Positions 11,085 to 27,979 of a stretch of 64,000 nt of DNA are shown here, piece by piece; within the stretch, counting starts at the first letter, position 1, and each line of letters begins with the position of its first letter. The notes under the pieces are model-generated. The model worked only from the letters and a program-made list of their open reading frames with translations. It made no database searches and had not been told where the DNA came from. Source of the DNA: Chlamydiota bacterium. Lineage in GTDB: Bacteria; Auribacterota; JACPWU01. The translations under genes and the position numbers were made by a program. The stretch covers positions 77,325 to 141,324 of the forward strand of contig JACOUC010000035.1 of NCBI GenBank assembly GCA_016178055.1, read 5' to 3'.

Positions 11085-12133
11085 ACGAACTCCTCTGAAA
11101 TGGTATCACTCAATTGATAACGCTCCTTCCATTTAGAATCTGCACAATAAATTCGATAGACCAAATGCATGGTTTTTAAAGCTTCGAGCGACGATCCGTG
11201 AATGATCGGTTTATCGTAAAGAATGGCATCTGCAAATTCGAAAATTTCATTTTTCCAGGAATGATCTTGATTGTAGCGCGTCGTCTGTTCACGAGGATCT
11301 CCACCATCGTTCTCAGTCGCATAGACCACCGTCATTGTCTCCGCACCGTAACTCTTAGAACCTGACAAAAGACCTGACAAAATAATCGCACCCTGCGAAA
11401 GCGTGATTTCCAGACTAAAGCGATGACGCCACTGGGTTGCTGATGAATGAAGAAAAGCAACAATACCATCTTCAGTCCGCATCAAGGCATAGGCATTATC
11501 CTCTACATCATGCTTCCAATGGTCATTCGATACAAAACTATAAACATCCTTAAACTCACCTGCAAAAAGGCGCATCATATCAACCATATGAATCCCCTGG
11601 TCTAGTAAAATTCCCCCTCCAGCCATGGAACGCTTGGTACGCCAATCTGAGTCGAAGCGGATAATCTTAGACTTCCCATAAACCCCCCTCATGTTCATCA
11701 CCTTACCCAATTCGCCAGACCGAACAATACCTAAGGCATCATGGACAGAATCGTGATAACGATGATTGAATCCATACTTTAATTTACATTGGGGATGCTG
11801 ACGTTCACACTGGATCACACGAACAACATCATTTAAATCTCGACCCGGTGGCTTCTCGCAAAAGACATGAAGCCCTCTTTCCAATCCTGCCATCGTGACC
11901 TCTGGTGCAACATCATTGGTCATACAAACAAAAAGGGCATCCAAATCCTCCCCCACTAATTGATGATAATTGTTAAAACAACGCACGCCATCTTGAGAAA
12001 CTCCATCCCCGCTGAAAGTCCGATCACAAACAGCTACCGTTTCTAAATGGGGGTGTTGATCAATAAATTCCCTACGGCGCTTCCCTACAACGCCATAGCC
12101 TGCAATTCCAACTTTGAGCTTTCCTTGCTTCAT
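11060..12133 (-). CDS. Gfo/Idh/MocA family sugar oxidoreductase.
   Basis: KVGIAGYGVVGKRR Rossmann motif and the EKPPG motif. Confidence 0.85.
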   Translation of the reverse strand: MKQGKLKVGIAGYGVVGKRRREFIDQHPHLETVAVCDRTFSGDGVSQDGVRCFNNYHQLVGEDLDALFVCMTNDVAPEVTMAGLERGLHVFCEKPPGRDLNDVVRVIQCERQHPQCKLKYGFNHRYHDSVHDALGIVRSGELGKVMNMRGVYGKSKIIRFDSDWRTKRSMAGGGILLDQGIHMVDMMRLFAGEFKDVYSFVSNDHWKHDVEDNAYALMRTEDGIVAFLHSSATQWRHRFSLEITLSQGAIILSGLLSGSKSYGAETMTVVYATENDGGDPREQTTRYNQDHSWKNEIFEFADAILYDKPIIHGSSLEALKTMHLVYRIYCADSKWKERYQLSDTISEEFVCKILSKV

Positions 12134-12912
12134 AAAACAGCGGATCCTAGATATCGAGGGAGAAGCAGGTCCTCGGATATGAGTTTTTCAACACGGGCAA
12201 GATCTTCAGGCGTATCGACTCCGATAGAAACACCCTCTACAAGAACCATCCTTACAGAATCTCCATATTCGAGGACACGCAACATATCCACCGACTCGAT
12301 CATTTCTAAAGGAGAAGGAGAAAGTGACACATATTTTGCAAGGTAGCTACGACGAAAGGCAATGAGTCCAAGCTGTTTAAACATCGGAATAGATCGATTC
12401 CATTTTTTTCTGGAAGGGATCCGTTCACGGGAAAAATAAAGAGCATTTTGATTTAAGCCCACAACCAACTTCACTACATTGGGGCTACTGAAATCCTCTT
12501 CATTGGTAATGGCCGCCATTAAATTGACAACATTCAGTGTTGACTCCTCCTTGAGAGGAGTCATAGCCCGTTCCAGCAACTCAGGCTGCAATAACGGCTC
12601 ATCCCCTTGAATCATCATGACCCTATCAATCGACTGTCCAGAAAGGGCTTCAATTTTTTCAACAGCTTCCGCCGTTCGTTCGCTTGCACGTTCGTGCTTG
12701 TAAGAGGTCATGACACAAGGAGCCCCAATCGATACTGCATAATCCTGAATCGCCTTATCACAGGTCGCAATAAAAACCCCTTCTAAAAGCGAGCAGAGCT
12801 TGCTTCGAAAATAAACATGACCAATCATAGGAAGGCCTAGAATTTTTGCTAGGGGTTTTCCAGGAAAGCGTGTGGAAGCCATGCGGGCAGGAATAACACC
12901 GATGATTTTCAT
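12130..12912 (-). CDS. CMP-3-deoxy-2-ulosonate cytidylyltransferase (KdsB/NeuA family), second copy.
   Basis: MKIIGVIPARMASTRFPGKPLAKILGLPMI and MMIQGDEPL motifs. Confidence 0.85.
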   Translation of the reverse strand: MKIIGVIPARMASTRFPGKPLAKILGLPMIGHVYFRSKLCSLLEGVFIATCDKAIQDYAVSIGAPCVMTSYKHERASERTAEAVEKIEALSGQSIDRVMMIQGDEPLLQPELLERAMTPLKEESTLNVVNLMAAITNEEDFSSPNVVKLVVGLNQNALYFSRERIPSRKKWNRSIPMFKQLGLIAFRRSYLAKYVSLSPSPLEMIESVDMLRVLEYGDSVRMVLVEGVSIGVDTPEDLARVEKLISEDLLLPRYLGSAVL

Positions 12913-12954
12913 GATCAGAAAATTCCTAAAGAATTGAAACCCATTCGCGCATTT

Positions 12955-13830
12955 TTACATGCGTGTAAAAATAATATTTGACATTGATTCTCGTATTAAA
13001 TGCCTTGATTTAATTCCAAAACCAGCCCCTTCAAGAAATTGCACAAGTCTCTGTCCCTTTGACAAACCCTCGTTTATCTCAACCAACAAGCTTTTAACTT
13101 CTGGGTTCGAAAGGGTCTCCTTACCGCCTTCTAAGATTTCTAATTCATGACCGTCCACATCCAATTTAATATAATTGGGAATTGGAAGCAAAAACTCTTG
13201 AATAAGATCGTCCAACCTAAATCCCATCAATTTCTGATGCCAAAAAGGGATAAATGGTTTTCCATTTTCATCAACACATTCCCCCAAGCTGTGCAAAGCC
13301 CCCCCTGGCTCAATCCCTTCTAGAGAACTATAATTAAATGCCTCTAATCTTGTCTTATTTGAGAGGGCAATTTGCAAGGGCGTAATGCTATCTGAACACT
13401 GATTAAGATAAATATTCTTGCAGAGCTGAGAGAAGGATGAAAACCCTGGCTCAAACGAAAAAATCTTTCCATCCCCCCCCATTGACTTCGCTGCAATCAG
13501 TGAATACACACCCACATTAGCTCCAATGTCGTAAAAGACCTCTCTTCCTCCTATAAATGTTTCTATCCAATGTACTGTCTCTGGCTCTTTTTTACATGAG
13601 TGTAATCGAGTAAAAAATTCATAACCAGATTCAATATCAAGATATATATCCCGTCGGGGGTAATCCATCTTCTGAACAATTTTAAATTTCCCCTTTATCG
13701 AAACAGCCGTCCTTGGACTCACCTGACACAGCATCCGAGTCATCCAAGCCCCGGTGTTTTCCACAACCTTTCTATAATGAAAGACGAACTTTTTAAAAAT
13801 GTTTTTTACGAATTTCCTAAGAAAAGTCAT
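12955..13830 (-). CDS. FkbM family methyltransferase.
   Basis: FYDIGANVGVYSL...FSFEP, the typical FkbM SAM-binding region. Confidence 0.8.
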   Translation of the reverse strand: MTFLRKFVKNIFKKFVFHYRKVVENTGAWMTRMLCQVSPRTAVSIKGKFKIVQKMDYPRRDIYLDIESGYEFFTRLHSCKKEPETVHWIETFIGGREVFYDIGANVGVYSLIAAKSMGGDGKIFSFEPGFSSFSQLCKNIYLNQCSDSITPLQIALSNKTRLEAFNYSSLEGIEPGGALHSLGECVDENGKPFIPFWHQKLMGFRLDDLIQEFLLPIPNYIKLDVDGHELEILEGGKETLSNPEVKSLLVEINEGLSKGQRLVQFLEGAGFGIKSRHLIRESMSNIIFTRM

Positions 13831-13837
13831 GCGATTT

Positions 13838-14632
13838 TTAGGTTATTTTCTTCTTCATAAACGCAAGTCCACTCCGACATGTCACATCCAACATTCGAAT
13901 ATCCAAACTATAGGCAAGAAAATGAAAGCCTTCTTTGACACGCCTCTTAAGCTCTTTGGGGTCGGGTTCAATGATATGAATACCTCCCGGTTTTTTCATC
14001 TTGGCAGCTACTTGTTTTATTCTTCTAAGAGCCCTTAATACCTTTGGATGAGTAAACTGTCCTGGAACCCCAAGCGAACCGGAAAGATCATAAGGTCCAA
14101 TCATGTAACCGTTAACCCCAGGAACAGAAAAAATCTCTTCAAGATTTTCAACTGCATCAATATGTTCAATTTGGACAATAACAATTGCCTCATTTTGCAA
14201 CCACTTTAAATAGTCCTGAAAGCGTGTACCATAGCCCTGTGCACGGGCAAGTCCTACCCCACGTCGCCCCCTAACTGGATAATGTACCGCGCAGACAGCA
14301 GCTTCAGCTTGTTCTCTAGAATTGACCATCGGTACAATGACGCCGTGCGCCCCAGCATCCATCACACGCTTAATTTGGTTCGGATCATTCGAAGTCAATC
14401 GAACCAAAGGCGTCACACCGCAAAGACCTATCACACGAATCAATTCCTCTGCCTCTCGAATGGTAATCACACTGTGCTCTAAATCCACGGCAAGCCAATC
14501 AAACCCTGCTTTTGCCATAATCTCAGCAATTCCAGTATGAGCAAGGGTGATCCAAGAGCCAATAGTAAGCTGGTTTGAAAACAATTTCTGTTTTAAGGAT
14601 TTTTTTTTGGAACCTATTTTTGTTTTACTCAT
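13838..14632 (-). CDS. HpcH/HpaI-family class II pyruvate aldolase, second copy.
   Basis: IGSWITLAHTGIAEIMAKAGFDWLAVDLEHS...VRL...GAHGVIVPMV motifs. Confidence 0.8.
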   Translation of the reverse strand: MSKTKIGSKKKSLKQKLFSNQLTIGSWITLAHTGIAEIMAKAGFDWLAVDLEHSVITIREAEELIRVIGLCGVTPLVRLTSNDPNQIKRVMDAGAHGVIVPMVNSREQAEAAVCAVHYPVRGRRGVGLARAQGYGTRFQDYLKWLQNEAIVIVQIEHIDAVENLEEIFSVPGVNGYMIGPYDLSGSLGVPGQFTHPKVLRALRRIKQVAAKMKKPGGIHIIEPDPKELKRRVKEGFHFLAYSLDIRMLDVTCRSGLAFMKKKIT

Positions 14633-14639: not shown

Positions 14640-16529
14640 CTACATCAATTCAACAAGTTCATTTACGGCCCGCTCTGCGGAGCGCCTATCATCTTTATAA
14701 GAACCATATGCGTTAAAAAATTCTCTATCGAGAGGCCGCGGAAGCGCAACCTCAGATTTTCGCAATGCAACTTCTATATCTTTTAGAAATTGTTCCTTAG
14801 TTTCAGAAAAAACAACACGTTTTTTTAATTGTTTAACCGCCTTGGGATCAAATTGAATAAAAGGATTTCCCGAAAAGACAATCACTTTTTTATCCGTCAA
14901 AAGAGATTGCAAAAGGGTTGTGCTTGGACAGTCGATAATAAATAAGTCCCCTAATTTCAACATTTCTGAAAAGCTAATCGAACGAATGATCACACAATTT
15001 GATATCTTTTCTCTTCGAAGCCACTCGTCAACAGGATGATAGACGCGATCTCCTGAATGAAATTTAGCTAGAACGTAAACATCTTGGAATTTGCTACAAA
15101 CACGTATAACTTCTTGTTGCAAACGCCAGTACCAAATATCAGGGTAAGAATGATGTGTAAAATATCGCGTCTGCCCCATAAGATTTGTATTGACATAAAT
15201 GACAATTTTTTTGTTTTTTGGCAAGTTTGAAGCGATCTCGCTAAGAACTTTTGAATTTAAATCGGCTTCATTCTTACTTAAAACATCCAGAGAAATCGAA
15301 CCCACAGGGATAATCTTCGCTCTTCTTTTTTCGCTCGCTCGATATGCTGAGGGAGTAGCCTCTCTCAAAGAATCACGGACACCTTCTCCATAGCAGAAAA
15401 AGTAGTTCGCTGCATACAAATCATGATGTTCAATAATAGGGTAGTCCACATATCCATACATTCCTCCGTGCTGATAGCAAACCACAGGGATTTTCAAAAA
15501 ATGCCCGGCGATAGCGCATGCGATTTGTCCCACTTCAGCATATTGACTGCCCAAAATAACAGCTTTGCTTCCATGAGGAATCTTTTTAGAAATCGTATCG
15601 GTCATTGTAAGACATCGAGGTATAACAAAGGTAATAAAGTGTTTAAGACGTGTCTCAACAATCGAAAAGTAATTCTTGTTTCCCACTGTGAAAAAAGACT
15701 TGAAATTTTCATCCTTTGATAACCTCTCCCAAAGAAGATGGCAAAGTTGTAGCGTGTCCCTCTGAGGTAAATCTCCTCTAACTCCGCTCAAGAGATCTTT
15801 TAAATTTATCACCTTTCCTGTCCCCCGCTTTAACCATAATTCTCCAAGGGGCTTACTATCTGCATAGAGATCTGTCAGAATGAGAGATGGCATTCCATTG
15901 AATGAAAAATTCATATCTGATGAGATATTTTCCCATCGTCTTGACAAGCTGGCCAAACCTTTTAACCCCGTGCGAAAAGTCGAACGCAAGCGCCGAAACG
16001 GTGCAAGAGCTGTTGAAAACGCAGTATAAGTGCAGTTTAGGTCCTTTAAAAAAAGAGGTAACAAACGCGATGAAAGAGATTCGTCACGGAAAAATAAATT
16101 ATCTTCGATCCGGTCGGGACGTGTATCAAAAAAAAGAACTCGTGTAGGTTTTAATTCTAACAATGCCCGACAAATTCTAAGTTCGTAATTCAAAACAGCA
16201 TCGAAGAGAACCTTAAGATAAAAAAAGAAAAAATGTGAAGAAAATGCCTTTCCACATCGATAATCGGAAAGGATTGAACGCTTCAAGGAGCTATCCAAAT
16301 AATCACAAAACGCCTGCACACGTTCATAGTTACGTAAACCCATTTCAATAAGTTCTGTCTCATCATGAAAGTCATCAATGATGTGATATGCTAAACCAAG
16401 CTTTTCAGCAGCATAATCCGCCTCTGGGGTTAAAGCTACGTATGTTGGCTTTAAATAATTTTGAGCACTATACCGTAGGAGAAACTTCAACTGATCCTGC
16501 GTCTCAAAAAATGCAACGATAGCCGACAT
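14640..16529 (-). CDS. Large hypothetical protein, putative glycosyltransferase-like (GT-B-like, HP motif).
   Basis: 629-aa ORF in operon context. Its C-terminal half resembles a nucleotide-sugar transferase fold (VYHPVDEW). No firm family assignment. Confidence 0.55.
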   Translation of the reverse strand: MSAIVAFFETQDQLKFLLRYSAQNYLKPTYVALTPEADYAAEKLGLAYHIIDDFHDETELIEMGLRNYERVQAFCDYLDSSLKRSILSDYRCGKAFSSHFFFFYLKVLFDAVLNYELRICRALLELKPTRVLFFDTRPDRIEDNLFFRDESLSSRLLPLFLKDLNCTYTAFSTALAPFRRLRSTFRTGLKGLASLSRRWENISSDMNFSFNGMPSLILTDLYADSKPLGELWLKRGTGKVINLKDLLSGVRGDLPQRDTLQLCHLLWERLSKDENFKSFFTVGNKNYFSIVETRLKHFITFVIPRCLTMTDTISKKIPHGSKAVILGSQYAEVGQIACAIAGHFLKIPVVCYQHGGMYGYVDYPIIEHHDLYAANYFFCYGEGVRDSLREATPSAYRASEKRRAKIIPVGSISLDVLSKNEADLNSKVLSEIASNLPKNKKIVIYVNTNLMGQTRYFTHHSYPDIWYWRLQQEVIRVCSKFQDVYVLAKFHSGDRVYHPVDEWLRREKISNCVIIRSISFSEMLKLGDLFIIDCPSTTLLQSLLTDKKVIVFSGNPFIQFDPKAVKQLKKRVVFSETKEQFLKDIEVALRKSEVALPRPLDREFFNAYGSYKDDRRSAERAVNELVELM

Positions 16530-17390
16530 TTACCAACAGGTCCTTCCACCATCTATCGTAAGAAGAGATCCCGTCATATAGCTCGACGCATCTGAAACGA
16601 GAAAGACAATGGCTGCCTTATATTCATCTTGGCTCGCCATGTGACCTAACGGAATAAGCTCAGAAAGACGCTTCACGAATCCCTCATCTTGTTGATCATA
16701 AACCCCACCGGGGCATAAGGCATTCACGCACACACCTCGATCGGCCCAATAGGTCGCCAAATAACGGGTTAACCCGAGAAGTCCTGATTTGACCACAGAG
16801 TAACTCACAGGCTTCACGGGTTGTTCATTTTCAGGGGAGCCGGGCCGACGATAAATTCTTTGATCAGGACCAATCAAAGCAAGATCAGAAGCAATGTTAA
16901 GAATAACGCCCTTACCTCTTCTTGCCATTTCAGTTCCAATGATCCGGCTACATAGAAATGCACCTGTAAGCCCTACCGCTATGTCTTGATTCCAAATCTC
17001 TAGTGGAAAATTTTCTAACCTAGACCCCTGAAATTTAGAATGATCTTTGGACTCAACTTTTGGATTATTTGCGGCATTATTAACCAAAATATCAATTCGT
17101 TTAAATGTACTTATAATTTTTTTGAGCGCACTGGAAATCTGCATTTCTTGAGAAATATCGACGGCTAAACCCATTGCTGGGACATGGTATTTTTTTTCTA
17201 ATTCTTTTGCGCAAGCTTTTGTCTTCTCTAGATCCAAATCGAAAAGAACAGGCACCCCACCCATTTCTGCGATGGCCTCGGCATGTTTAAACCCAAGCAA
17301 ACCCGTGCCGCCCGTAATCACAGCAACACGACTTGTTAAATCAAAAGCCTGTTTCACAGATTTCATTTCAAATAACCCGCGTTTGTCCAC
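16530..17390 (-). CDS. SDR family oxidoreductase.
   Basis: VAVITGGTGLLG and the YSVVKSGL YxxxK motif. Confidence 0.8.
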   Translation of the reverse strand: MDKRGLFEMKSVKQAFDLTSRVAVITGGTGLLGFKHAEAIAEMGGVPVLFDLDLEKTKACAKELEKKYHVPAMGLAVDISQEMQISSALKKIISTFKRIDILVNNAANNPKVESKDHSKFQGSRLENFPLEIWNQDIAVGLTGAFLCSRIIGTEMARRGKGVILNIASDLALIGPDQRIYRRPGSPENEQPVKPVSYSVVKSGLLGLTRYLATYWADRGVCVNALCPGGVYDQQDEGFVKRLSELIPLGHMASQDEYKAAIVFLVSDASSYMTGSLLTIDGGRTCW

Positions 17391-18141
17391 CGTCTACAAC
17401 CAGACAAGCCCCTGTTATAAAGGAAGCTCTTTCAGATGCCAGAAATGTAACTGCATCGGCAATTTCTTCGGCTCTACCGAAACGTTGCAAGGGAACTTCT
17501 GTGTTGATATATTGCTCAAAAAAATCTTTTCGTTCGGCGAGCTTGGCCTCCCAAGTCCCACCCGGAAACAGGATATTTCCAGGAGAAACGGCATTCACAC
17601 GCACTCCCTGAGAGCCTACCATGCGAGATAAATTTTTCATTGCACTGTGAAGGGCCGCCTTTGCTGCACTGTAGGGAATAGGGGCAGGAATAGCTTCATT
17701 TCCAGCAATAGAGCTGATGAAAATTAAATTACCACGGCTTTGAATTAAATGGGGAAGGGCAGATTTTGCAAACGCCATTCCCCCTAACAAATTTACATTC
17801 AACATCTGTTGCCACTCGTCCCTAGATAAATCCCAACCACTTTTACCTACGCCGCTTCCTATATTTGCAATAGCAATATCAATTCTTCCAAATTTTTCAC
17901 ACGTATTTTGAAGAACACGATGAATCTCTGCCTCGAGGGTCATATCTGCACAAAAGGAAGCAACACGATGAGAACGTCCCTTTTTCACGAGGAACGACTC
18001 CGCATTTTTTACATTTTTTTCATCGCGGCCAGTCAGAATGACTTGAGCTTCTTCTTCTAAAAATGCCTCTGCAATAGCAAGCCCAATTCCGCGGCTGGAC
18101 CCTGCAATCAATACAACTTTATTTTTTAATCCAAGATCCAT
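17368..18141 (-). CDS. SDR family oxidoreductase.
   Basis: VLIAGSSRGIGLAIA, NIGSG and YSAAKAAL motifs. Confidence 0.85.
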   Translation of the reverse strand: MDLGLKNKVVLIAGSSRGIGLAIAEAFLEEEAQVILTGRDEKNVKNAESFLVKKGRSHRVASFCADMTLEAEIHRVLQNTCEKFGRIDIAIANIGSGVGKSGWDLSRDEWQQMLNVNLLGGMAFAKSALPHLIQSRGNLIFISSIAGNEAIPAPIPYSAAKAALHSAMKNLSRMVGSQGVRVNAVSPGNILFPGGTWEAKLAERKDFFEQYINTEVPLQRFGRAEEIADAVTFLASERASFITGACLVVDGGQTRVI

Positions 18142-18983
18142 TAGGTTCTAGACATCACAAAGCCAAGATGCCTTTCTACAAATTGGCGATTCTGTTTCGC
18201 TAACTCCATCTCGCCTACCTCGAGATTGCGCGCTGCTTGCAAGATAAACGGCCCTTGGAATCCGGCTCCCTGAATCAACCGAAAGCAGGTTGGAAAATCA
18301 GCATGGCCACTTCCTAAGAGTACCGTTCCTCCCCCCAAAAGGCGGTCTTTGACATGAACACTTCCCAGCCAAGAACCTAAGAGTGAAAGTTCTTCTGAGG
18401 GGTCATGTCCTAAAGAGGCCGCGTTTCCAATATCATAATTCATTTTGATCCATTGGAAAGAAACGCGCTCAAGAAGCTTCAACAAGGTTTGGGGAGATAA
18501 ATCTGTCTCCAGATGTAGCTCTACTTTTTTTTCTTTTAAAAGAGGAAGAAGCCCCTTTAAAATAATGACTAAACTCTCTAAGGCCTCAGGAGATTTAAGG
18601 GAAGAGGCATCCACAAAAGGTAAAACCATATAGCGGACTTGTAAGGCATTGGCTCGACTGATTAATCCTTTTAAATGTTCAACAACTTTAGGCTGACTCC
18701 TTCCATCGGATAAAATTAAATGCTGTGTCATGTAGTGATCAGCACAGATAGACCAAACTTGAACTCCAGACTTCTGAATTAACTTTTTAATTTCATGAAT
18801 ACCTTCTGGAGTCCTTAAAGGATTTTCACTTTCCGTCTCATATTCATAAATCCATTCGATACAAGCGAGACCCGCTTCTTGAGCCTTAAAAAATTCATTA
18901 CGCCAAGTATGGACGGGAAAAGACTGAATACGCCCATCACGAGGGGGAGAAAGTCGACCTTGCATAATTCCAATCGGATTCAT
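18141..18983 (-). CDS. Sugar phosphate isomerase/epimerase (xylose-isomerase-like TIM barrel).
   Basis: EWIYEYE...HLETD...NYDIGN pattern of the AP-endonuclease-2/xylose-isomerase TIM-barrel family. Confidence 0.7.
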   Translation of the reverse strand: MNPIGIMQGRLSPPRDGRIQSFPVHTWRNEFFKAQEAGLACIEWIYEYETESENPLRTPEGIHEIKKLIQKSGVQVWSICADHYMTQHLILSDGRSQPKVVEHLKGLISRANALQVRYMVLPFVDASSLKSPEALESLVIILKGLLPLLKEKKVELHLETDLSPQTLLKLLERVSFQWIKMNYDIGNAASLGHDPSEELSLLGSWLGSVHVKDRLLGGGTVLLGSGHADFPTCFRLIQGAGFQGPFILQAARNLEVGEMELAKQNRQFVERHLGFVMSRT

Positions 18984-19993
18984 TATTTCTGCTTAAATGC
19001 GTAAGGGGATGGAGCATTTGAAACTTTTTCTCCCCTTTGGGCATCCCATTTTTTGATTTGACCAACAATATCTACACCTACATTCTCACTCCACGCATTC
19101 AAAAGTTTCTTTGTCATATTCCCCATTTTCCCATCTCCAATTTTTGTACCATTTAAAGATGTCACGGGAAGAAGGCAAAAAGGAGTTCCTGTCATGAAAG
19201 CTTCGTCTGCCGTCATCACATCATAAGGCTCAATATTTTTTTCAACGGACTTTAACCCTAATTGACAAGCCAGTTCAGAGAGAACATAAGCTCGACTAAT
19301 CCCTCTTAAAATATTGCGTCCCTCCGGGGTTACAAGAACCCCATCCTTTACGATAAAAAAGTTATCCCCTGTCCCCTCTGCGATAAAACCATCTGGATCT
19401 AAAAGTAAAGCCCAATTGTTTTCACCTTCACATTGAGAAACTTCAATATTGGCCATCATATAATGAAGCCGACTTCTATTCTTAACCTTGGGTTCCAAGA
19501 GAGAAGCCGGAATGGCCCGCTGAGAAGGAATAACTGCATTGATTCCCTTATCAAAAAGAACCCCCATCCCAGCAACCGTCCAACGAAGTGGAAAATCTGC
19601 AATGATCACATTTGCACCCCGAGGAAGGCCTACGATACCTTCATAAATAGAAAGAGTACCTCGAGAAACATCAATCAACAAACGATGTTCATCGTCGTGG
19701 GAGAAAACAGATTCATTCGCTTCGATGGTCTTATAAATAGCCTTTTCCATATCATCCAAAGACATCTTCAAAGGAATTCGGACAAATTTGATGGAGGCGT
19801 ATAATCTTTCTAAATGTTCTCGAAGCTTGAATTGTTTCTTATTAAAGGACCGAGTCATTTCAAAAACCATGTCCCCGAACATTAAAGCCGAATCATAGAT
19901 AGAAAGTTTCGCCTCAGCTTCAGGAACAAACTCACCATTCAAATAAACCACCCTTCCTTTGCCATTGTTCATGGATTCATCCCCTCTCGACAC
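18983..19993 (-). CDS. Class IV (BCAT/D-amino-acid) PLP-dependent aminotransferase.
   Basis: Fold-type IV features: EGTGDNFFIVKDGVLVTP, RGISRAYVLSEL and TGTPFCLLPVTSLNG. Confidence 0.8.
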   Translation of the reverse strand: MSRGDESMNNGKGRVVYLNGEFVPEAEAKLSIYDSALMFGDMVFEMTRSFNKKQFKLREHLERLYASIKFVRIPLKMSLDDMEKAIYKTIEANESVFSHDDEHRLLIDVSRGTLSIYEGIVGLPRGANVIIADFPLRWTVAGMGVLFDKGINAVIPSQRAIPASLLEPKVKNRSRLHYMMANIEVSQCEGENNWALLLDPDGFIAEGTGDNFFIVKDGVLVTPEGRNILRGISRAYVLSELACQLGLKSVEKNIEPYDVMTADEAFMTGTPFCLLPVTSLNGTKIGDGKMGNMTKKLLNAWSENVGVDIVGQIKKWDAQRGEKVSNAPSPYAFKQK

Positions 19994-20280
19994 ATCCAGT
20001 CGCTTAAATTAAGAGCCTTATCATCAATATAAAGATCTGCTGTGGGCTTTCCCATATAAAGTTGGTGATAAGTTACTTTCCACTTTCGAAGCTGCTCCTC
20101 TGTCAGGGGACGCCAATTTATTCCCGTTGTTGCGCCTCGTGCCGTATAAAGAAGGACTGTGTGCCCTTCTTGATAAATCTGATTCACTCGCGTGATCACA
20201 GAATAGATCGGCTCTGCCTTTTCATATTCTCCATCCGTATTCGTGCACAAAGTTCCATCAATGTCGAAACAATAAATCAC
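19969..20280 (-). CDS. Small HAD-superfamily phosphatase (KdsC/NeuAc-9-P phosphatase-like).
   Basis: FDIDGTL motif I and a GKP...DD region. Lies in a NeuB/NeuA-type module. Confidence 0.6.
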   Translation of the reverse strand: MIYCFDIDGTLCTNTDGEYEKAEPIYSVITRVNQIYQEGHTVLLYTARGATTGINWRPLTEEQLRKWKVTYHQLYMGKPTADLYIDDKALNLSDWMCREGMNP

Positions 20281-21020
20281 ACGCGTTCCTTCTTAAAAAT
20301 TTCATCATACCACTGGACAATGTCCACAATGTTAAAATGGGGATGACGCGGGTACAAGTATTCATAAAGCTCTTTCATAAAGACGTACTCGTCCCATGTG
20401 TTTACATCTAAGACAAGATCCGGTCGCCGAAATGCAAGGGGGCATTGAACCGTTCCGACCCGATAACGTTTATCCATCGCTTTTTGTGTTTTATAATCAA
20501 AAAAATTCAAATGCGGATGTTCTCTTTTGTAAAAATCTTGAACCTCTTTCCAAACGGTTTCTAAGGCCTCAAAGTTAAACACCTCCGCCCCAATTCCATC
20601 AGGATAACCATTTCCAAATACAGGGGCAAGGTTTGAGGAAAAATCGCTTTGGCCAGTCAGATGATAATCGACGATGCGATCGATTTCTCCAGGCTCTGGA
20701 ACAGGATTATCTGCGGGAAGACGAACAATCACTTGGGCTTCGTATTCCTTTGCTGCCTGGTAATAGCGATCGACTAAATCATTTTCAGAACCTCGAAAGG
20801 ATTTCACTCGATAAGTTTCAGCAAGCGTTTGAAGAACATCATCCTCTGCCTTTTCAGTCGTAGCCAAGACAATCTCATCCATACTTTTACAACGCTTTAC
20901 ACGCTCTAAAACGCGTCCGACCAAAGGAGCACCCGCCAAATCCAACATAGATTTCCCCGGCAAACGCGTGGAACCCATCCGGGCTTGCAGAATCAAGACA
21001 ACTCTAGGTTTTTGGATCAT
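20277..21020 (-). CDS. Acylneuraminate-type cytidylyltransferase (NeuA/PseF-like), third cytidylyltransferase.
   Basis: ILQARMGSTRLPGKSML N-terminal motif. Confidence 0.8.
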   Translation of the reverse strand: MIQKPRVVLILQARMGSTRLPGKSMLDLAGAPLVGRVLERVKRCKSMDEIVLATTEKAEDDVLQTLAETYRVKSFRGSENDLVDRYYQAAKEYEAQVIVRLPADNPVPEPGEIDRIVDYHLTGQSDFSSNLAPVFGNGYPDGIGAEVFNFEALETVWKEVQDFYKREHPHLNFFDYKTQKAMDKRYRVGTVQCPLAFRRPDLVLDVNTWDEYVFMKELYEYLYPRHPHFNIVDIVQWYDEIFKKERV

Positions 21021-21026
21021 TATTCT

Positions 21027-21965
21027 TTAAACTTTTTGAGGCTTAGGAGCCGCGGAAGGTTTCTCTCCATTAGAAGGTGTCCAGTATCTCAATTTCTTTG
21101 CATTGGCAAGTTCCGAGGAGAGAACGCGCTTAATTCCATCTCCCATGACCGTTGGAATGGTGCGAACATAACCGACCATCATTTCTAATCCTCTCTTCTC
21201 CAATGAAGCGGCTTGATCACTCCCATACATCGCCCGATCCAGCGTGATATGACGTTCAATCGCCACAGCGCCCATCATGGCAGCAAGGACACCTGGAACC
21301 ATGGTCACTTCATGACCACTGTATCCAACAGGGCATTGATATTTTTTTCTTAATTCAACAATACATTTTAAATTCAGCGCCTCCTCAGGAACTGGATAGG
21401 CAGAAATACAATGCATAAGGACAAAAGGACAATCATAATTTCTAAAAATCTCAACCGCCCGATCAATGTCCTCGTAAGTGCTCATCCCTGTCGAAATAAA
21501 GGTGAGTTTTTTCTCCTGAGCAACCGCTTCTAAAAGATCCAGATGCGTCATCATAGGAGATGCAATTTTGTTATATTTAAGATTGTATTGCCGCATAAAA
21601 TGCTGGCTCTCAACATCCCAGGCAGAAGCAAACCACTCGATTCCAAATTTCTTACAATAAGCGTCAATCTCATCATATTCTCTTTTTCCAAACTCTAAGC
21701 CTTCCTTTTGCGCTCTTTGTGTTTTCCCCCACGGACTTTCTCGAGGTGAATCTAAAACCTCTTTGGAATAAACAATATCTATCGTGCGCTTCTGAAATTT
21801 TACCGCGTCACAACCTGCCTCTTTAGCCATATCGATTAATTGCTTGGTAATCCCTAAATCTCCATTGTGGTTAATACCAATTTCGCCAATAATAAATACA
21901 TGTTTAGCAATGGGCCAAGGGTTTTCTTGAATCAGGTCGCTTAAAAACTGAAAACCGTTATTCAT
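21027..21965 (-). CDS. NeuB family ulosonic/nonulosonic acid synthase (PEP-dependent).
   Basis: IIGEIGINHNGDLGITKQLIDMAKEAGCDAVKFQKR matches the NeuB/PseI core. Confidence 0.85.
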   Translation of the reverse strand: MNNGFQFLSDLIQENPWPIAKHVFIIGEIGINHNGDLGITKQLIDMAKEAGCDAVKFQKRTIDIVYSKEVLDSPRESPWGKTQRAQKEGLEFGKREYDEIDAYCKKFGIEWFASAWDVESQHFMRQYNLKYNKIASPMMTHLDLLEAVAQEKKLTFISTGMSTYEDIDRAVEIFRNYDCPFVLMHCISAYPVPEEALNLKCIVELRKKYQCPVGYSGHEVTMVPGVLAAMMGAVAIERHITLDRAMYGSDQAASLEKRGLEMMVGYVRTIPTVMGDGIKRVLSSELANAKKLRYWTPSNGEKPSAAPKPQKV

Positions 21966-21988: not shown

Positions 21989-23845
21989 CTACCGCCCCTC
22001 ACGTAGAGGCTGCATGGATTGTTCATTAACAGATGTCGCAACTTGACCAACCTCTTGCATAATCTTACGTAATGACTTATTGATCTCTTGCGATTTTTTC
22101 CTTTTGAACTTCATGATGTGGAGGCATCTGATCTGAAAAAATTCACTCAAACGGAGAATAAACACCTTTTTAGGAAGCCTTAGAAATTCTGATCTCAACA
22201 ACTGATACCAAATAATAAACGTTCTAAAACGGTATAAATAAACAAGGGCAGGATAGTACCAATAGCCTGTTGAAAAGTTAAAATAACCCCCTCTGGAATA
22301 GTCGTCCGATGACACCTTGTCTTGAACCTTCAGCTTTTTCCAATTCTGAAACTTGCTAGGCCAAAAAAACTTCAACATCAATGGATATAAGAAATCATTC
22401 ATAAATCCTTTTACACTCAAACGAACCATGTTGTTATATTTTAAATAATGAGCCATCACTTCAAAAACCAATCTGCGCCTCCAAGACTGGACAGTAAAAT
22501 AATCGGTGTCTGTAAAATTCAAGAATTTGGTATCATCACGGGCGTCGACATTAGAAATGAGCATCAAATATTTTTCTTCATCTTCAAGCGTTTTACCCAG
22601 GAATCCTTTCACCCTTGCGTTTTCATAAACAGGCGTTCCAGGCAAAGCTTGAATGTAATTACAACTGATCCTATTCTGAGGATACTCTGGTAAAAATTGT
22701 GTGACTGATTTCATAAAATCAGTGGTTTCAGAAATCGTCTGCGGAGTTTCACCCGGCATCGCCAAAACCAATTGATAAGTTGTATAAATTCCCGCCTCGA
22801 ATGTCCAGCGAGCCGCATGATAATTCATATCCACTGTTGCTCCCTTCTCCATCACTTTGAGAATGGTTGGGCTCCCCGTTTCCATCCCATAATATACCGC
22901 CACACACCCGCTTTTTTTCAACCTCTTAAGTAAATCCAAATCCACGGAACGAACTCTCACTCCTGAGACAATGTATAAAATATCTAGCGACTGAACCAAT
23001 TCTATCAATTCATCCAGCGCTCGTCTGTCTGATCCAAAATTCTCATCGGCAAAATTGATAAAACCCACATTGTATCGATCCATAAGATACTTAATTCTGG
23101 AGATAATTTTTCCAGGCGGAAAATGGCGATACCCCTTATCCCAACGGTGACAAAAGGTACATCGAGCAACACAACCTTTCGCAGAGAGGACATTGCCCAT
23201 TTTCTTCCCATGGCGATGACTCTCTCGGCTCCGAGGATCCCGCGCAAAATCCTCCCTCCTTGTAAGAGGGTCCTTCACAAAATTATCAATTTTTGAAAAC
23301 TTTTCTAGAATAGTATAGTCAGGATCAAATAACTGGTCGGCAGCAATCGCCGTCTCATAACCCGTAAAAATAAAATCTCCTTTCCTATCTAAAAAAGAGA
23401 TTCCTTTAATTTGCCGAAGTGTTAAATCATCAAATGATGTACCTCGATTCTCAATATATCGCATGAGATTCACAATGACTTTCTCGCCTTCCCCAATGAC
23501 ACAAAAATCTACTCCACATAATCGATGAAGGATTTCTGCACTTGCGGCAAGATTACCACCGACAACAATCGTTACGTTAGGAACAACTTTGCGCAAGGCC
23601 TTCGCAAGTCTTTTAGTATACTCATAGGCGGTTGAAACCACAGCGCTGATACCAACCACGTCGGGTTGCTGCTCTTCAAAAAATCTAACCACTTCATCAA
23701 ACGTTGGCCTTAACCCATCAATATCATAGAAATAGATATCATGATAACCATGGGATTGAAGAGATTGAATAATGGCCATCGAACCAAAAGGAGGATAATC
23801 CGTCGGAACAGGGCGAATGGGAGTTGTACAAATTGTGATTTTCAT
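21989..23845 (-). CDS. B12-binding radical SAM enzyme (class B).
   Basis: N-terminal B12-binding-like region followed by a CVARCTFC CxxxCxxC cluster. 618 aa. Confidence 0.8.
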   Translation of the reverse strand: MKITICTTPIRPVPTDYPPFGSMAIIQSLQSHGYHDIYFYDIDGLRPTFDEVVRFFEEQQPDVVGISAVVSTAYEYTKRLAKALRKVVPNVTIVVGGNLAASAEILHRLCGVDFCVIGEGEKVIVNLMRYIENRGTSFDDLTLRQIKGISFLDRKGDFIFTGYETAIAADQLFDPDYTILEKFSKIDNFVKDPLTRREDFARDPRSRESHRHGKKMGNVLSAKGCVARCTFCHRWDKGYRHFPPGKIISRIKYLMDRYNVGFINFADENFGSDRRALDELIELVQSLDILYIVSGVRVRSVDLDLLKRLKKSGCVAVYYGMETGSPTILKVMEKGATVDMNYHAARWTFEAGIYTTYQLVLAMPGETPQTISETTDFMKSVTQFLPEYPQNRISCNYIQALPGTPVYENARVKGFLGKTLEDEEKYLMLISNVDARDDTKFLNFTDTDYFTVQSWRRRLVFEVMAHYLKYNNMVRLSVKGFMNDFLYPLMLKFFWPSKFQNWKKLKVQDKVSSDDYSRGGYFNFSTGYWYYPALVYLYRFRTFIIWYQLLRSEFLRLPKKVFILRLSEFFQIRCLHIMKFKRKKSQEINKSLRKIMQEVGQVATSVNEQSMQPLREGR

Positions 23846-25071: not shown

Positions 25072-26112
25072 TCAATCCTCCATCTTAATCATGATACGCC
25101 CTGCATTTCCTTGTTCCAACTCTTTCAATGCTTGATTAATATCCTGAAGTCCATATTCATGCGTAATCATGCTCTTTAAGGGCAAATCTCCTGATAAAAA
25201 AAGGTTTGCGTAAAAAGGAATATCCTCATCTGTCTGGGCAGAGCCACCCCAAGAACCCAATATTTTTTTACCCTTAATTAAATCCATGGGATCAATCAAA
25301 ATCAAATCACCTTGAGATAAGTTACCCGCAATGACACAGATTCCTCCCTGGTCTCTTACAGATCGGAAAGCAGCCTCCATCGCCTGTTTTTTCCCCGAAG
25401 CTTCTATCGCATAATCCACACCCAATCCATTCGTCATATTGAGGATTTCAATTGCCACATCGCAAGACATTCCATTAATCGTGTGAGTTGCACCCAATTG
25501 TTTCGCTTGTTTTAATTTATGATCAAAAATATCGACCGCAATAATTTTATGAGCCTTAACAAAAGAAGCCGCCATCAAAGCACTCAAGCCCACTCCTCCA
25601 ATACCAAAAATAGCAACGCTCTCTCCCTCAGAAATCTTGGCCACTTTCAAAACGATTCCTGCACCCGTGGGAATCGCACAACCCAGAAGAGCAGCCTCTC
25701 GCAACGGCATAGAATCCAAAATAGGCGTAAGACGATTCTCGCAAGTAATGGTCCGCCTCATAAAGGTGCTAATTGCCCCAGAATTAACAGGACCTTCATC
25801 ACTCTGGTAAACCATCGAGGGGACATCCTTCCCTTTACCTTTAATCCAAGAAAGAACCACTCGATCGCCAGGTTTCACCTTCACAACATCGGAGCCCACT
25901 TCCAAAACTGTTCCAGAGCCCTCATGACCTAGGGTGTGAGGAAGAAAACGATCCGGTCCTCGTTTACCTAAAACTTCTAGAAGTTGACTGTGGCAAATAC
26001 TGCTATATGCAACATCCACAAGAACCTGTCCGGATTTAAGACTGGGTATCGTGACAGGAATAAGCTGCAGAGGTTTGCAAACTTCGAAAAGAACAGCTGC
26101 TTGGGTTTTCAT
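25072..26112 (-). CDS. Zinc-binding MDR-family alcohol dehydrogenase.
   Basis: CHSQL...GHEGSGTV zinc-ligand motif and a GxGxxG NAD region. Confidence 0.85.
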   Translation of the reverse strand: MKTQAAVLFEVCKPLQLIPVTIPSLKSGQVLVDVAYSSICHSQLLEVLGKRGPDRFLPHTLGHEGSGTVLEVGSDVVKVKPGDRVVLSWIKGKGKDVPSMVYQSDEGPVNSGAISTFMRRTITCENRLTPILDSMPLREAALLGCAIPTGAGIVLKVAKISEGESVAIFGIGGVGLSALMAASFVKAHKIIAVDIFDHKLKQAKQLGATHTINGMSCDVAIEILNMTNGLGVDYAIEASGKKQAMEAAFRSVRDQGGICVIAGNLSQGDLILIDPMDLIKGKKILGSWGGSAQTDEDIPFYANLFLSGDLPLKSMITHEYGLQDINQALKELEQGNAGRIMIKMED

Positions 26113-26190
26113 AAGAATGGGTGAGTGGTTACTGATATCTCTACTTATTATTCATACCCCTCACTCATAACCTCTCACCCCTCACCAAAT
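26113..26190 (-). promoter_or_regulatory. Conserved ~75-bp leader element immediately upstream of the ADH start codon (copy a).
   Basis: Shares GTGAGTGGTTA and CCCCTCAC(C) blocks with 40747..40807 and contains an inverted repeat. Confidence 0.4.
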
Positions 26191-26194
26191 AATA

Positions 26195-26863
26195 TTATTC
26201 CGCAATAAACCAATAATAATCGCCTGTATATCCGACTTCCTGAAAGAGTTTCTTCCAATCATTCACATGCATCATGGTTTCAGCGGTCAAAACCCATTTG
26301 TAAAGTTGTTCTTGCTCTTTTTCATTTCTCCAAGCATCCATGGTGATATAGCTGTGGCCACGGCTGACCCTCTGAATTTCTCTAAGGGCCTTCTTCAAAG
26401 GCTCAAGAGAAAGGTTGTGGATAGAATTGATAGAGATTACGAGATCAAAGCTTTTATCTGGAAAGGGTAAGCTTTCTGCACTCGCTACTTTAAGAAATGG
26501 TTTCACTGTAGGTATGGCGTGTTCAATGGCATATTCGCTCACGTCCACCCCTGCAACTTGGCATTCAGGCATGAGCTCTCTAAAATCATGCAACAAAAAT
26601 CCCTTTGCACATCCAATGTCTAAAACAGCAGCATTCTCTGGCAAACGATAATGATCGCGAAATCGTTTTGCGATATCTTTCCAACGCCCATCATATTTAT
26701 AGCCTCCATATCCCATCACACGAGGACCATCAAAAAACTCCCGACCAAATTGTTTAGCAATTCGGATAATTTCGGAAGTTTTCTCTTTGGCCCTTTGATC
26801 GTAATCACGAAGAGCTTTAGGGTGAGAATTTAAAAGATTAATTTCTGCCATCACGAAGGGCAA
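26195..26863 (-). CDS. Class I SAM-dependent methyltransferase.
   Basis: VLDIGCAKGF motif I. Confidence 0.8.
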   Translation of the reverse strand: MPFVMAEINLLNSHPKALRDYDQRAKEKTSEIIRIAKQFGREFFDGPRVMGYGGYKYDGRWKDIAKRFRDHYRLPENAAVLDIGCAKGFLLHDFRELMPECQVAGVDVSEYAIEHAIPTVKPFLKVASAESLPFPDKSFDLVISINSIHNLSLEPLKKALREIQRVSRGHSYITMDAWRNEKEQEQLYKWVLTAETMMHVNDWKKLFQEVGYTGDYYWFIAE

Positions 26864-26923: not shown

Positions 26924-27979
26924 TCATGACTTCTTCGCCTTTTCTACACCTTTGCTGAGCTCTTTTTCAAGCTCCTTAATCGCTGGAAAGCTTGATTTCA
27001 ATTTCTTCGGCAACGCATGCGTTAATTTATACTCTGATACCCCAATGGGTTTATGGATATCACTCATGGCATATTCTGCAACCAACTTATCCCGCCTCTT
27101 ACAAAGTAGAAGGCCGATTGTTGGGAGGTCCCCAACTTTACGCAACTGACTGTCCATCGCCTTGATATAAAAATTAAGTTTGCCAGCAAACTCCGGTTCG
27201 AAGTCCCCTGTTTTCAGTTCAACCACAACATAGCAATGCAAGCGAGTATGATAAAAAAGAAGATCTATAAAAAACTCTCGGTCCCCCACTTGAACAGGAA
27301 TTTGCCTGCCGATAAAAGCAAAACCGGCACCCAACTCCAGAAGAAAGCTCGTAAGATGATCTATGAGCTTATGTTCAAGCTCTCGCTCGCTAGAATCTGT
27401 AGACATGTTCAAAAAGTCAAAGATATAGGGATCCTTCAATGTTTGTTGAGCAAGATCGCCTTGGGGTTTAGGCAGCGTTAAATGAAAATTGCTAACGGCT
27501 TTCCCTTCCCGTTCAAAAAGACCGCTCTCTATCTGATGAACAAGAACGTTACGACTCCAATTATGCCTGATCGTGCCCTGCACGTAAAACATAGCTTCAC
27601 AGACGTCTTTGCATTTAGAGATAATGGCAATGTTATGTCCCCAGGGGATAGAGGTAATTTGGCCAACAACTTGTTGGCTAATTTGCTCTTCTTGGCTGTA
27701 AAATAAGTGCCACTGTTTGATATACTTTAAATTACTAAGTGAAAATCCTTTCATATCAGAAAATTCTGCCATCAAGTCCTTGCTGAGCCGAGGCAATAGA
27801 CCCTCTCCCCATTTTACGCTTTTTTGCCTGACAACAATATCCACGCCCATATCCCAATAAAGCTTTAACAGTTCAGTGTTTACACTGATCGCAGCTTTAA
27901 TCTGAGCACTGCGGACTCTCTTCTTAATATCCGAAAGCCAGGACTTGTATTCCTCGTCGCTCGTCAAATAATCTTTCAT
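26924..27979 (-). CDS. YhcG/DUF1016 family protein (PD-(D/E)XK nuclease-like C-terminus).
   Basis: FIDLLFYHTRLHCYVVVELKTGDFEPEFAGKLNFY matches the DUF1016 core. Flanked by ~50-bp direct repeats at 26871-26921 and 28033-28083. Confidence 0.8.
   Translation of the reverse strand: MKDYLTSDEEYKSWLSDIKKRVRSAQIKAAISVNTELLKLYWDMGVDIVVRQKSVKWGEGLLPRLSKDLMAEFSDMKGFSLSNLKYIKQWHLFYSQEEQISQQVVGQITSIPWGHNIAIISKCKDVCEAMFYVQGTIRHNWSRNVLVHQIESGLFEREGKAVSNFHLTLPKPQGDLAQQTLKDPYIFDFLNMSTDSSERELEHKLIDHLTSFLLELGAGFAFIGRQIPVQVGDREFFIDLLFYHTRLHCYVVVELKTGDFEPEFAGKLNFYIKAMDSQLRKVGDLPTIGLLLCKRRDKLVAEYAMSDIHKPIGVSEYKLTHALPKKLKSSFPAIKELEKELSKGVEKAKKS

Follow-up and report, generated by a model that had tools for sequence, protein, structure and literature searches.

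A minus-strand operon in the window, by which we mean the whole stretch of 64,000 nucleotides analysed here, is best read, with reasonable though far from full confidence, as one instance of a widely transferred cassette whose product, a CMP-activated amino-ulosonic acid, goes into a surface polysaccharide. The cassette itself, of which we found no published description in the literature, is a real, widespread and previously uncharacterised variant of CMP-ulosonic acid biosynthesis. Its gene content, operon structure, conserved synteny, gene fusions and family placement are established.

In the window, the NeuB-family, CTP_transf_3, HAD, aminotransferase, TIM-barrel and two SDR genes are tightly packed on the minus strand, and a LIC12162-family gene comes next (Table 1). 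The junctions read GTGA, ATGA, TAATG, TAATG and TAAATG. Because neighbouring genes share bases at their start and stop codons or follow each other directly, the module is, as judged from the nucleotide sequence, a single translationally coupled operon. The genes named in the initial annotation are all present on this strand where it placed them, with both SDR genes lying just outside the range that it reported. The window also holds Wzm/Wzt genes, which provide a glycan context, and three CTP_transf_3 genes (3649-4473, 12130-12912 and 20277-21020), the first two of which are KdsB-like; the earlier count of three CMP-activating enzymes is thus borne out.

Table 1. Genes of the operon and its immediate neighbours in the window
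Feature	Coordinates	Strand	Evidence
B12-binding radical SAM enzyme	21989..23845	-	PF02310 and PF04055
Short NeuB-family PEP-condensing synthase, 312 aa, without SAF/AFP	21027..21965	-	PF03102, E 1.4e-68
CTP_transf_3 cytidylyltransferase, predicted CMP-activating	20277..21020	-	PF02348, E 3.2e-30
Minimal HAD phosphatase, 103 aa	19969..20280	-	Weak TIGR01689 and PF25109 matches; HAD motifs
Class IV (BCAT-like) aminotransferase	18983..19972 (ORF to GTG 19993)	-	PF01063 (Aminotran_4), E 1.4e-43
Xylose-isomerase-like TIM barrel	18141..18983	-	PF01261 (AP_endonuc_2), E 1.8e-23
Classical SDR oxidoreductase 1	17368..18141	-	adh_short_C2, E 9.8e-57
Classical SDR oxidoreductase 2	16530..17390; likely start ATG about 17366	-	adh_short_C2, E 5.4e-39
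LIC12162-family putative transferase	14640..16529	-	PF27859 LIC12162, precomputed for identical protein

Relatives of the aminotransferase at 69-77% identity occur in 304 species genomes from most bacterial phyla and some archaea, with loci from Chlamydiota, Chloroflexota, Pseudomonadota, Planctomycetota, Bacteroidota, Leptospira, Patescibacteria and methanogens. For the analysis of synteny, we took the 64 related loci whose flanks extend 4 kb or more on each side and scored the genes within 7 kb of the aminotransferase. A NeuB-family gene was found in 63 loci and a CTP_transf_3 gene in all 64. Seen again and again across many phyla, at 63-64 of 64 independent loci, the association of the three genes is far beyond chance. 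The 80 analysed loci were picked by aminotransferase similarity, and the apparent extra conservation of the aminotransferase is therefore biased. Some sources annotate the enzyme generically as a "branched-chain amino acid aminotransferase", and a housekeeping IlvE, with orthologues at the ilv locus of relatives and residing here incidentally, was the objection raised by the initial annotation itself. The probability of this explanation is practically negligible: the synteny across phyla, the ATGA overlap that translationally couples the aminotransferase to the HAD gene, scores below the ilvE equivalog cut-offs and invariant active-site substitutions all contradict it, and the aminotransferase is an integral, syntenic member of the locus.

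The core of NeuB, CMP-transferase and phosphatase was confirmed by family profile matches, whereas the label "canonical" finds no support. The NeuB homologue scores 231.4 bits against PF03102 (gathering cut-off 22.1), and its PEP- and metal-binding motifs EIGINH, KFQ, HC.S.YP, SGHE and ERH align with those of NmNeuB, PseI and SpsE. It falls below the equivalog cut-offs of both NeuB/NnaB (TIGR03569; 231.6 < 399.65 bits, with a match spanning profile positions 1-274 of 329) and PseI (TIGR03586; 179.9 < 340.25 bits), and profile searches gave zero matches to a SAF/AFP domain. In a neighbour-joining tree, the cassette NeuBs of 276-316 aa form a monophyletic clade apart from NmNeuB, PseI and SpsE. 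The cytidylyltransferase scores 106 bits against PF02348 (gathering cut-off 22.6), and its closest PDB match is 6oew, "Cytidylyltransferase". It misses the KdsB (TIGR00466; 36.8 vs 155.2 bits) and PseF (TIGR03584; 23.3 vs 205.7 bits) cut-offs and is neither NeuA-, PseF- nor KdsB-like. The small HAD protein belongs to its superfamily by the four HAD motifs (DIDGT, TAR, GKP and DDK), which are kept across 14 homologues, and lies below the TIGR01689 capsule phosphatase cut-off (36.6 < 162). At other loci, a KdsC-like phosphatase stands in for it, and one or the other is present in 40 of 82 loci. No cassette gene reached a curated equivalog threshold.

The aminotransferase probably starts at ATG 19972, and the resulting 329-aa product is identical to a public protein; among its best 120 homologues, the other 119 share 73-89% identity. 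Its score of 149.8 bits against PF01063 (gathering cut-off 28.5) places it in class IV. The earlier assignment to fold-type IV rather than DegT is upheld, and just 8/64 related loci have a DegT gene within 7 kb. The best sequence matches, at about 180 bits, are archaeal and thermophile BCATs (PDB 5mqz, 5cm0 and 5e25), with which it shares the fold, the catalytic Lys, invariant among 205 family members, and the GxGDNxF motif. The nearest characterised relatives are L-specific archaeal BCATs that act on alpha-keto acids, not sugars, and we know of no sugar aminotransferase of fold-type IV. In contrast to these BCATs, the enzyme is found exclusively in the NeuB cassette. It has three insertions relative to them and carries the family-invariant changes G38M, Y95E, Y164R and AAE to PFC at positions contacting the substrate or PLP. 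It misses the cut-offs for IlvE (TIGR01122, 184.8 < 245.55; PRK08320, 211.1 < 363; PRK12479, 174.3 < 518; PRK06606, 163 < 279), DAAT (TIGR01121, 116.8 < 277.45) and ADCL (aminodeoxychorismate lyase; 101.3 < 308). BCAT models score it above DAAT models, and ADCL models far lower.

Given that the family is nearest to amino-acid transaminases and keeps both Arg residues with which BCATs bind carboxylates, the class IV enzyme might instead make or recycle an L- or D-amino acid or 2-oxo acid for N- or O-acyl decoration, the sugar itself not being aminated. We regard this as distinctly improbable. The related loci show no conserved ATP-grasp ligase, acyltransferase or carrier protein alongside the aminotransferase, a four-gene version of the cassette (NeuB, CTP3, aminotransferase and a BtrN-like radical SAM enzyme) has no enzyme that would attach an amino acid, and the BCAT models outscore those for DAAT. 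Of the "amino or D-amino-acid decoration" suggested earlier, the amino part remains the best reading, whereas the D-amino-acid part is disfavoured by the closeness to L-specific BCATs and the lack of a conserved ligase or acyltransferase. No N-acyltransferase conserved with the cassette was found at the related loci, which is unusual for amino-ulosonic acids.

The TIM-barrel gene is present in 52/64 loci and at least two SDR genes in 44/64; SDR1 follows the TIM gene at most related loci. UlaE is the sole significant PDB match of the TIM barrel (E 6.6e-07), and the score lies below the UlaE/SgbU (L-ribulose-5-phosphate 3-epimerase) cut-off (46.2 < 317). E159, D184 and H210 are kept, whereas the Glu that serves UlaE as fourth metal ligand and second base is an invariant Gln249, which leaves the earlier term "isomerase" unproven; a metal-dependent keto-sugar isomerase or dehydratase would fit. 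All of the best NCBIfam matches of SDR2 fall below threshold and represent sugar-acid dehydrogenases, gluconate 5-dehydrogenase among them. Three loci have one SDR alone with a KdsC-like phosphatase, and some of the four-gene cassettes do without any phosphatase or isomerase.

In 11/64 loci, a single radical SAM/SPASM protein of 266-290 aa takes the place of the TIM barrel and the SDRs; across the 64 loci, this gene and the TIM gene are mutually exclusive. Its closest PDB match, along the full length, is BtrN (E 1e-10). BtrN, of the butirosin pathway, is a radical SAM enzyme that dehydrogenates an alcohol to a ketone, which then undergoes transamination, and in other pathways NAD-dependent dehydrogenases do the same job. 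Because the TIM barrel and SDRs are swapped for such an enzyme, the exchange supports a route to the amino group in which a hydroxyl is oxidised and then transaminated. The variant cassette resembles the BtrN/BtrS pair in placing a dehydrogenase next to a transaminase, but the predicted substrate is a sugar acid or sugar phosphate rather than an aminocyclitol, and the transaminase is of fold-type IV. The same neighbourhood could suggest a PLP lyase or deoxygenation partner, acting either as in DesI/DesII, where radical deamination comes after amination, or by elimination as in ADCL, and leaving a deoxygenated rather than aminated sugar: fold-type IV does contain a lyase, ADCL, the radical SAM enzyme adjoins the aminotransferase, and the equivalents of Tyr164 and Tyr95 are replaced. 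This explanation is nevertheless unlikely, as the radical SAM partner is of BtrN size and BtrN-like throughout, the partners at most loci are NAD(P) SDRs rather than radical enzymes, and ADCL models score far below BCAT models.

Transamination of an oxidised sugar thus remains our preferred reading, and a route can be proposed; its individual reactions and their order are inferred, as are the amination site and the length of the carbon chain. The short NeuB would join PEP to an aldose phosphate, the HAD phosphatase would take off the terminal phosphate, and the CTP_transf_3 enzyme would make the CMP-sugar, following the logic of Kdo/KDN synthesis. An SDR would then turn one hydroxyl into a carbonyl for transamination by the BCAT-like enzyme, with L-glutamate as the probable donor, and the TIM barrel and second SDR may alter an adjacent centre, either through isomerisation or through a dehydration with subsequent reduction. 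Alpha-keto acids are the favoured substrates of BCAT-like enzymes, and by established chemistry the NeuB product in its open-chain form belongs among them; amination at its C2 keto group would give a polyhydroxylated 2-amino acid, not a CMP-activatable ulosonic acid. Such a reaction seems very unlikely, since it would abolish the anomeric centre needed by the cytidylyltransferase found in all 64 loci and make the SDR or BtrN-like dehydrogenase superfluous.

The LIC12162-family protein would transfer the activated sugar. Its gene start abuts the SDR2 stop, and 22/64 loci have a LIC12162-like gene no more than 7 kb from the aminotransferase. The family is annotated as a transferase adjoining neuABC genes (PMC6679464), which makes this protein a candidate for moving the sugar acid onto a glycan. 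The B12-binding radical SAM gene stops 23 nt upstream of the NeuB gene, with an RBS in the gap, and is found in just 7/64 related loci; its product is an accessory tailoring enzyme outside the conserved core, probably a C-methyltransferase that adds a methyl group in the window's version of the pathway.

The cassette shares with the Kdo (KdsD-KdsA-KdsC-KdsB) and the KDN-9-P and Neu5Ac-9-P routes of Bacteroides and animals the order of sugar-phosphate isomerase, PEP-condensing synthase, KdsC/YrbI-type or HAD phosphatase and CMP-transferase. It differs in its NeuB-family rather than KdsA synthase, in the GmhA-like rather than KdsD isomerase of its relatives, and in four extra enzymes, namely the class IV aminotransferase, the TIM barrel and the two SDRs. 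Shewanella makes Kdo8N with the KdnB oxidase, which is Fe-ADH-like, and the KdnA aminotransferase of fold-type I. As there, an ulosonic acid would be aminated by oxidation and transamination, with neither nucleotide-hexose intermediates nor DegT chemistry on NDP-sugars, but in the cassette the aminotransferase is of fold-type IV and its partners are classical SDRs or a BtrN-like radical SAM enzyme. The legionaminic, pseudaminic and neuraminic pathways (NeuB/LegI/PseI with DegT) have in common with it the NeuB-family condensation, CMP activation and location in surface-glycan loci. Unlike them, the cassette lacks the set of NDP-hexose dehydratase, DegT, acetyltransferase and hydrolysing epimerase, and its NeuB, without SAF domain, falls in a separate clade.

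Two mutually exclusive candidate gene sets for heptose supply accompany the cassette. Among the short-NeuB loci, 23 encode a GmhA-like isomerase and lack a nearby heptose kinase, and in 21 of these a phosphatase of the KdsC-like or HAD type is present as well. The isomerase that we sampled can be aligned end to end with the phosphoheptose isomerase 2xbl, with sequence motifs in common; at two loci the isomerase is fused to KdsC. At a further 23 loci, Leptospira species among them, NeuB is fused to SAF and AP_endonuc_2 (TIM) domains, whereas the window NeuB is short and unfused. All 23 carry GmhB-, HddA- and HddC-like genes and none a KdsC-like or small HAD phosphatase. The same architecture was noted in Leptospira interrogans by Ricaldi et al. 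2012, who read the extra domain as a putative phosphatase and predicted Neu5Ac as the product (PMC3438082). Cytidylyltransferase-KdsC fusions (8 loci), KdsC-SIS isomerase fusions (2 loci) and the embedded GmhA-like isomerases indicate a phospho-sugar route resembling that of Kdo/KDN.

Heptose 7-phosphate may be the precursor used by the cassette. More tentatively, and with considerable doubt, NeuB could join PEP to D-glycero-D-manno-heptose, supplied as the 7-phosphate or set free from an NDP-heptose, to give a ten-carbon amino-ulosonic acid. "Higher-carbon" CMP-ulosonic acids are so far only unassigned mass-spectrometric signals (bioRxiv 10.64898/2026.04.20.719630). If true, the ten-carbon reading would provide a genetic basis for this class, as well as the first role of a fold-type IV aminotransferase in a sugar pathway.

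The class IV aminotransferase of this locus belongs to a conserved gene cassette, of which the window carries one copy. Every long ORF of the window lies on the minus strand, and the genes named in the initial annotation, a canonical ulosonic module with a fold-type IV aminotransferase, are all present there. The junctions between the cassette genes read GTGA, ATGA, TAATG, TAATG and TAAATG, and the genes are therefore translationally coupled. Three CTP_transf_3 genes occur in the window, in agreement with the earlier count. An aminotransferase identical at 100% is on record from a Chlamydiae/Chlamydiota MAG.

Positions of cassette genes and other features in the window
Feature	Position	Strand	Evidence or remark
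B12-binding radical SAM enzyme	21989-23845	-	profile matches
NeuB-family synthase	21027-21965	-	PF03102, E 1.4e-68
CTP_transf_3 cytidylyltransferase	20277-21020	-	E 3.2e-30
HAD-like protein, 103 aa	19969-20280	-	profile matches
Class IV aminotransferase	18983-19972	-	PF01063, E 1.4e-43
Xylose-isomerase-like TIM barrel	18141-18983	-	PF01261, E 1.8e-23
Classical SDRs, two	17368-18141 and 16530-17390	-	profile matches
LIC12162-family protein	14640-16529	-
First aldolase module	2886-4473
Second aldolase module	12130-14632, with 8352-12133
Heptose-type module	28259-30133, 25072-26863, 38425-43841
Further B12-binding radical SAM enzyme	32685-34748
YhcG/DUF1016 PDDEXK nucleases, two	26924-27979 and 37074-38108		apparent insertions
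Truncated epimerase fragment, 171 aa	38425-38940
Retropepsin-like aspartyl protease ORF	41799-42179		apparent insertion
HldE	42258-43841	-
HEPN + nucleotidyltransferase pair	43778-44481		apparent insertion, toxin-antitoxin-like
Wzt-like ABC ATPase	45582-46940	-
Wzm-like permease	50005-50859	-
SNF2-family helicase, 801 aa	50891-53296	-	directly adjoins Wzm-like permease
GmhA-like ORF	54212-54865	-
Unmatched ORFs, 260-712 aa	23847-25013, 114-2024, 6278-8416, 35808-36620, 47300-48082		no significant Pfam/NCBIfam match

Among 5.8 billion proteins searched, over 6,000 matched the aminotransferase. Among the top 120, the best was 100% identical and the next 119 were 73-89% identical, and the top matches were labelled Chloroflexi, Deltaproteobacteria, Dehalococcoidales and Proteobacteria in addition to Chlamydiae. 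With each GTDB species represented by a single genome, a scan detected relatives in 304 genomes. The 80 best loci (69-77% aminotransferase identity) cover most bacterial phyla; the archaea contribute three MAGs, and cultured carriers include three Leptospira species and one Daejeonella. ORFs were called in the fetched loci and scored with the window proteins and family HMMs. Flanks of 4 kb or more on either side are available for 64 loci; in these, a NeuB-family gene lies within 7 kb of the aminotransferase in 63 and a CTP_transf_3 gene in all 64, together with a TIM-barrel gene (52/64) and two or more SDRs (44/64), while a DegT aminotransferase occurs in this radius in 8 of 64. The usual order is that of the window, namely NeuB, cytidylyltransferase, (phosphatase), aminotransferase, TIM barrel, SDR, SDR. 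The refuting alternative named in the initial annotation, a housekeeping IlvE whose position is incidental, is rejected on this conserved synteny, and the aminotransferase is an integral part of the module. Its apparently stronger conservation relative to its cassette neighbours was set aside, since the loci had been chosen by similarity to this very protein. Conserved antisense ORF families in GC-rich loci (f15, f25, f29, f35 and f39) are ORF-calling artefacts over conserved genes. A blastn comparison of the copy from an Enterobacteriaceae MAG with 5,426 E. coli genomes yielded no E. coli O-antigen of known structure with the cassette, and a plasmid protein search returned only ordinary class IV enzymes of about 36% identity and no cassette aminotransferase.

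No cassette protein attains any curated equivalog threshold. NeuB scores 231.6 against the NeuB/NnaB model (cut-off 399.65) and 179.9 against PseI (340.25), and the cytidylyltransferase scores 36.8 against KdsB (155.2) and 23.3 against PseF (205.7). The window NeuB lacks the SAF domain but retains the motifs for PEP and metal binding. A neighbour-joining tree groups the cassette NeuBs of 276-316 aa in one clade, apart from NmNeuB, PseI, SpsE and the canonical NeuB paralogues of the same loci, with 6ncs, a Leptospira structural-genomics protein, near its base. The aminotransferase (211.1 against PRK08320, cut-off 363; 184.8 against ilvE_I, 245.55; 116.8 against DAAT, 277.45) has archaeal BCATs as its nearest relatives. 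When 205 family members were aligned with E. coli IlvE, the catalytic Lys and the residues matching Arg40 and Arg97 proved invariant, while G38M, Y95E and Y164R (motif KNRSR) are family-wide substitutions, the carboxylate-binding turn is changed from AAE to PFC, and three insertions are present. The 103-aa HAD protein keeps all four HAD motifs. The TIM barrel scores 46.2 against L-ribulose-5-phosphate 3-epimerase (cut-off 317) and retains E159, D184 and H210, three of the four metal ligands. The fourth ligand of UlaE, which is also its second base, is Glu there and an invariant Gln here, so that a two-base 3-epimerase is unlikely. The protein may instead be an isomerase or a dehydratase.

The variants of the cassette hint at how an amine would be introduced. 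The TIM barrel and both SDRs are missing from 11 of the 64 loci, where a radical SAM/SPASM protein of 266-290 aa follows the aminotransferase instead. Its best PDB match, over the full length, is BtrN (E 1e-10), a radical-SAM dehydrogenase of butirosin synthesis that converts a secondary alcohol to a ketone, which is later transaminated. NAD-dependent dehydrogenases catalyse the BtrN step in related pathways. Three more loci have a single SDR and a KdsC-like phosphatase. The simplest common denominator would be that a dehydrogenase, either an SDR or BtrN-like, forms a carbonyl group that the class IV enzyme then aminates, and we place moderate confidence in this oxidation-then-transamination mechanism. 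The scheme resembles that of Kdo8N formation, although the enzyme families here differ. The amino-acid decoration suggested by the initial annotation is disfavoured, since the cassette loci contain no conserved acyltransferase or ligase. The amine would then be free, methylated, or acylated via unlinked genes. SAM methyltransferases are common accessories of the cassette, and B12-radical-SAM enzymes of the window type occur in 7 of 64 loci. The polysaccharide locus of the window has two such enzymes, a pair that is unusual in O-antigen-type clusters and suggests C-methylation of sugars.

The phosphatases bear on the origin of the carbon skeleton. Of 82 loci, 40 have a small HAD or a KdsC/YrbI-like phosphatase alongside the cassette; fusions join a KdsC-like domain to the cytidylyltransferase in 8 loci and to a SIS isomerase in 2. 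The order of steps would follow the isomerase, synthase, phosphatase and CMP-transferase logic of the Kdo and KDN pathways, in which isomerization is followed by condensation of PEP with an aldose phosphate, dephosphorylation and CMP activation; our confidence in such a phospho-sugar route is moderate. A SIS isomerase is embedded in 43 of 82 loci, and two members were compared with reference sets. That of Leptospira scores just under the gmhA cut-off, and that of the Methanoregula locus can be aligned end to end with GmhA of Burkholderia, with which it shares the AQHIA.EF, STSG and IQE.H...GH motifs. PtmF of Campylobacter was dropped as a GmhA-like analogy, because a paper lists it as an oxidoreductase. 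In a second arrangement, NeuB, SAF and AP_endonuc_2 TIM-barrel domains are fused in a protein of 630-780 aa that forms a clade between the canonical and short NeuBs (L012, L023, L031, L039, L046, L050, L055, L058, L060-L063, L068, L071, L072, L074, L075, L077, L079-L081 and others). The two groups of loci are cleanly separated: all 23 fusion loci possess GmhB-, CBS-HddA- and HddC-like genes and lack both KdsC-like and small HAD phosphatases, whereas the short-NeuB loci, from which the kinase is always absent, rely on KdsC-like or HAD phosphatases instead. With the same tailoring set linked to two independent heptose supplies, the precursor may be a heptose and the product would then have ten carbons, a proposal that we infer with low to moderate confidence. 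The window cassette has no embedded isomerase; a GmhA-like ORF and an HldE gene lie elsewhere in the window.

The locus is assigned to surface-polysaccharide synthesis because of its Wzm/Wzt ABC-transporter genes, between which lie about 3 kb of unannotated ORFs. The contig, attributed to a Chlamydiae/Chlamydiota MAG, carries three ulosonic acid modules in an ABC-transporter-dependent O-antigen-type locus that exceeds 45 kb. The other two CTP_transf_3 genes are KdsB-like, each beside an HpcH/HpaI class II pyruvate aldolase. The second aldolase module adds an FkbM methyltransferase, a GFO/IDH/MocA oxidoreductase, an SDR, a 2-hydroxyacid dehydrogenase and an AroB-related 'sugar phosphate phospholyase (cyclizing)' that scores over the TIGR04425 cut-off. 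The aldolase and its cytidylyltransferase, in part with the GFO and 2-hydroxyacid dehydrogenase genes, are neighbours of the aminotransferase cassette in about 10 loci, among them L017, L033, L039, L062, L072 and L077, and may represent a route to a further CMP-sugar acid that uses an aldolase in place of KdsA or NeuB. The heptose-type module comprises HldE, extended-SDR epimerases/dehydratases, an E1 alpha/beta TPP pair, an acetolactate-synthase-like TPP enzyme, a methyltransferase and a Zn-ADH; its genes also adjoin the cassette in loci of other phyla (L003, L005, L049 and L085), and its product may be a branched or extended heptose. The truncated epimerase fragment suggests local decay. ORF 6278-8416 has only a sub-threshold Glyco_transf_4 match, and the 388-aa protein directly upstream of the B12-radical-SAM gene has its sole homologue among the fetched loci in a duplicate assembly, L001.

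To conclude, the window has a copy of an uncharacterised cassette that has spread horizontally, has a BCAT-derived fold-type IV enzyme as its constant element, and would yield a CMP-activated ulosonic acid, probably an aminated one. The gene set, operon, synteny, fusions and family placements are well supported, and the finding is wider than could be known from the sequence alone. Microbial surface glycans are capped by ulosonic acids (Kdo, sialic, legionaminic and pseudaminic acids among them), which shape host, phage and immune recognition. Our literature search found no paper that ties a class IV or branched-chain aminotransferase to NeuB, nonulosonic acids or the cassette gene set. For Leptospira, Ricaldi et al. 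2012 (PMC3438082) described a NeuB-endonuclease-like fusion of L. interrogans, read as a phosphatase, and a 2019 preprint listed a phosphoheptose isomerase, N-acetylneuraminate synthase, cytidylyltransferase and 3-oxoacyl reductase upstream of the Hardjo rfb locus, without functional analysis. In a 2026 preprint (bioRxiv 10.64898/2026.04.20.719630), Magnetospirillum is reported to contain CMP-activated ulosonic acids whose backbone is extended (C10), and the text consulted proposes no biosynthetic pathway for them. Since the cassette ranges from Leptospira to methanogens and candidate phyla, its predicted product would be a common surface sugar still awaiting chemical definition, and the cassette offers a concrete, expressible set of five to seven genes. 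It would add fold-type IV to the enzyme classes for sugar amination and is a candidate source of unexplained CMP-sugars in mass spectrometry. In the genome attributed to an environmental member of the Chlamydiota, it forms one of three ulosonic acid modules within a large locus of O-antigen-like type.
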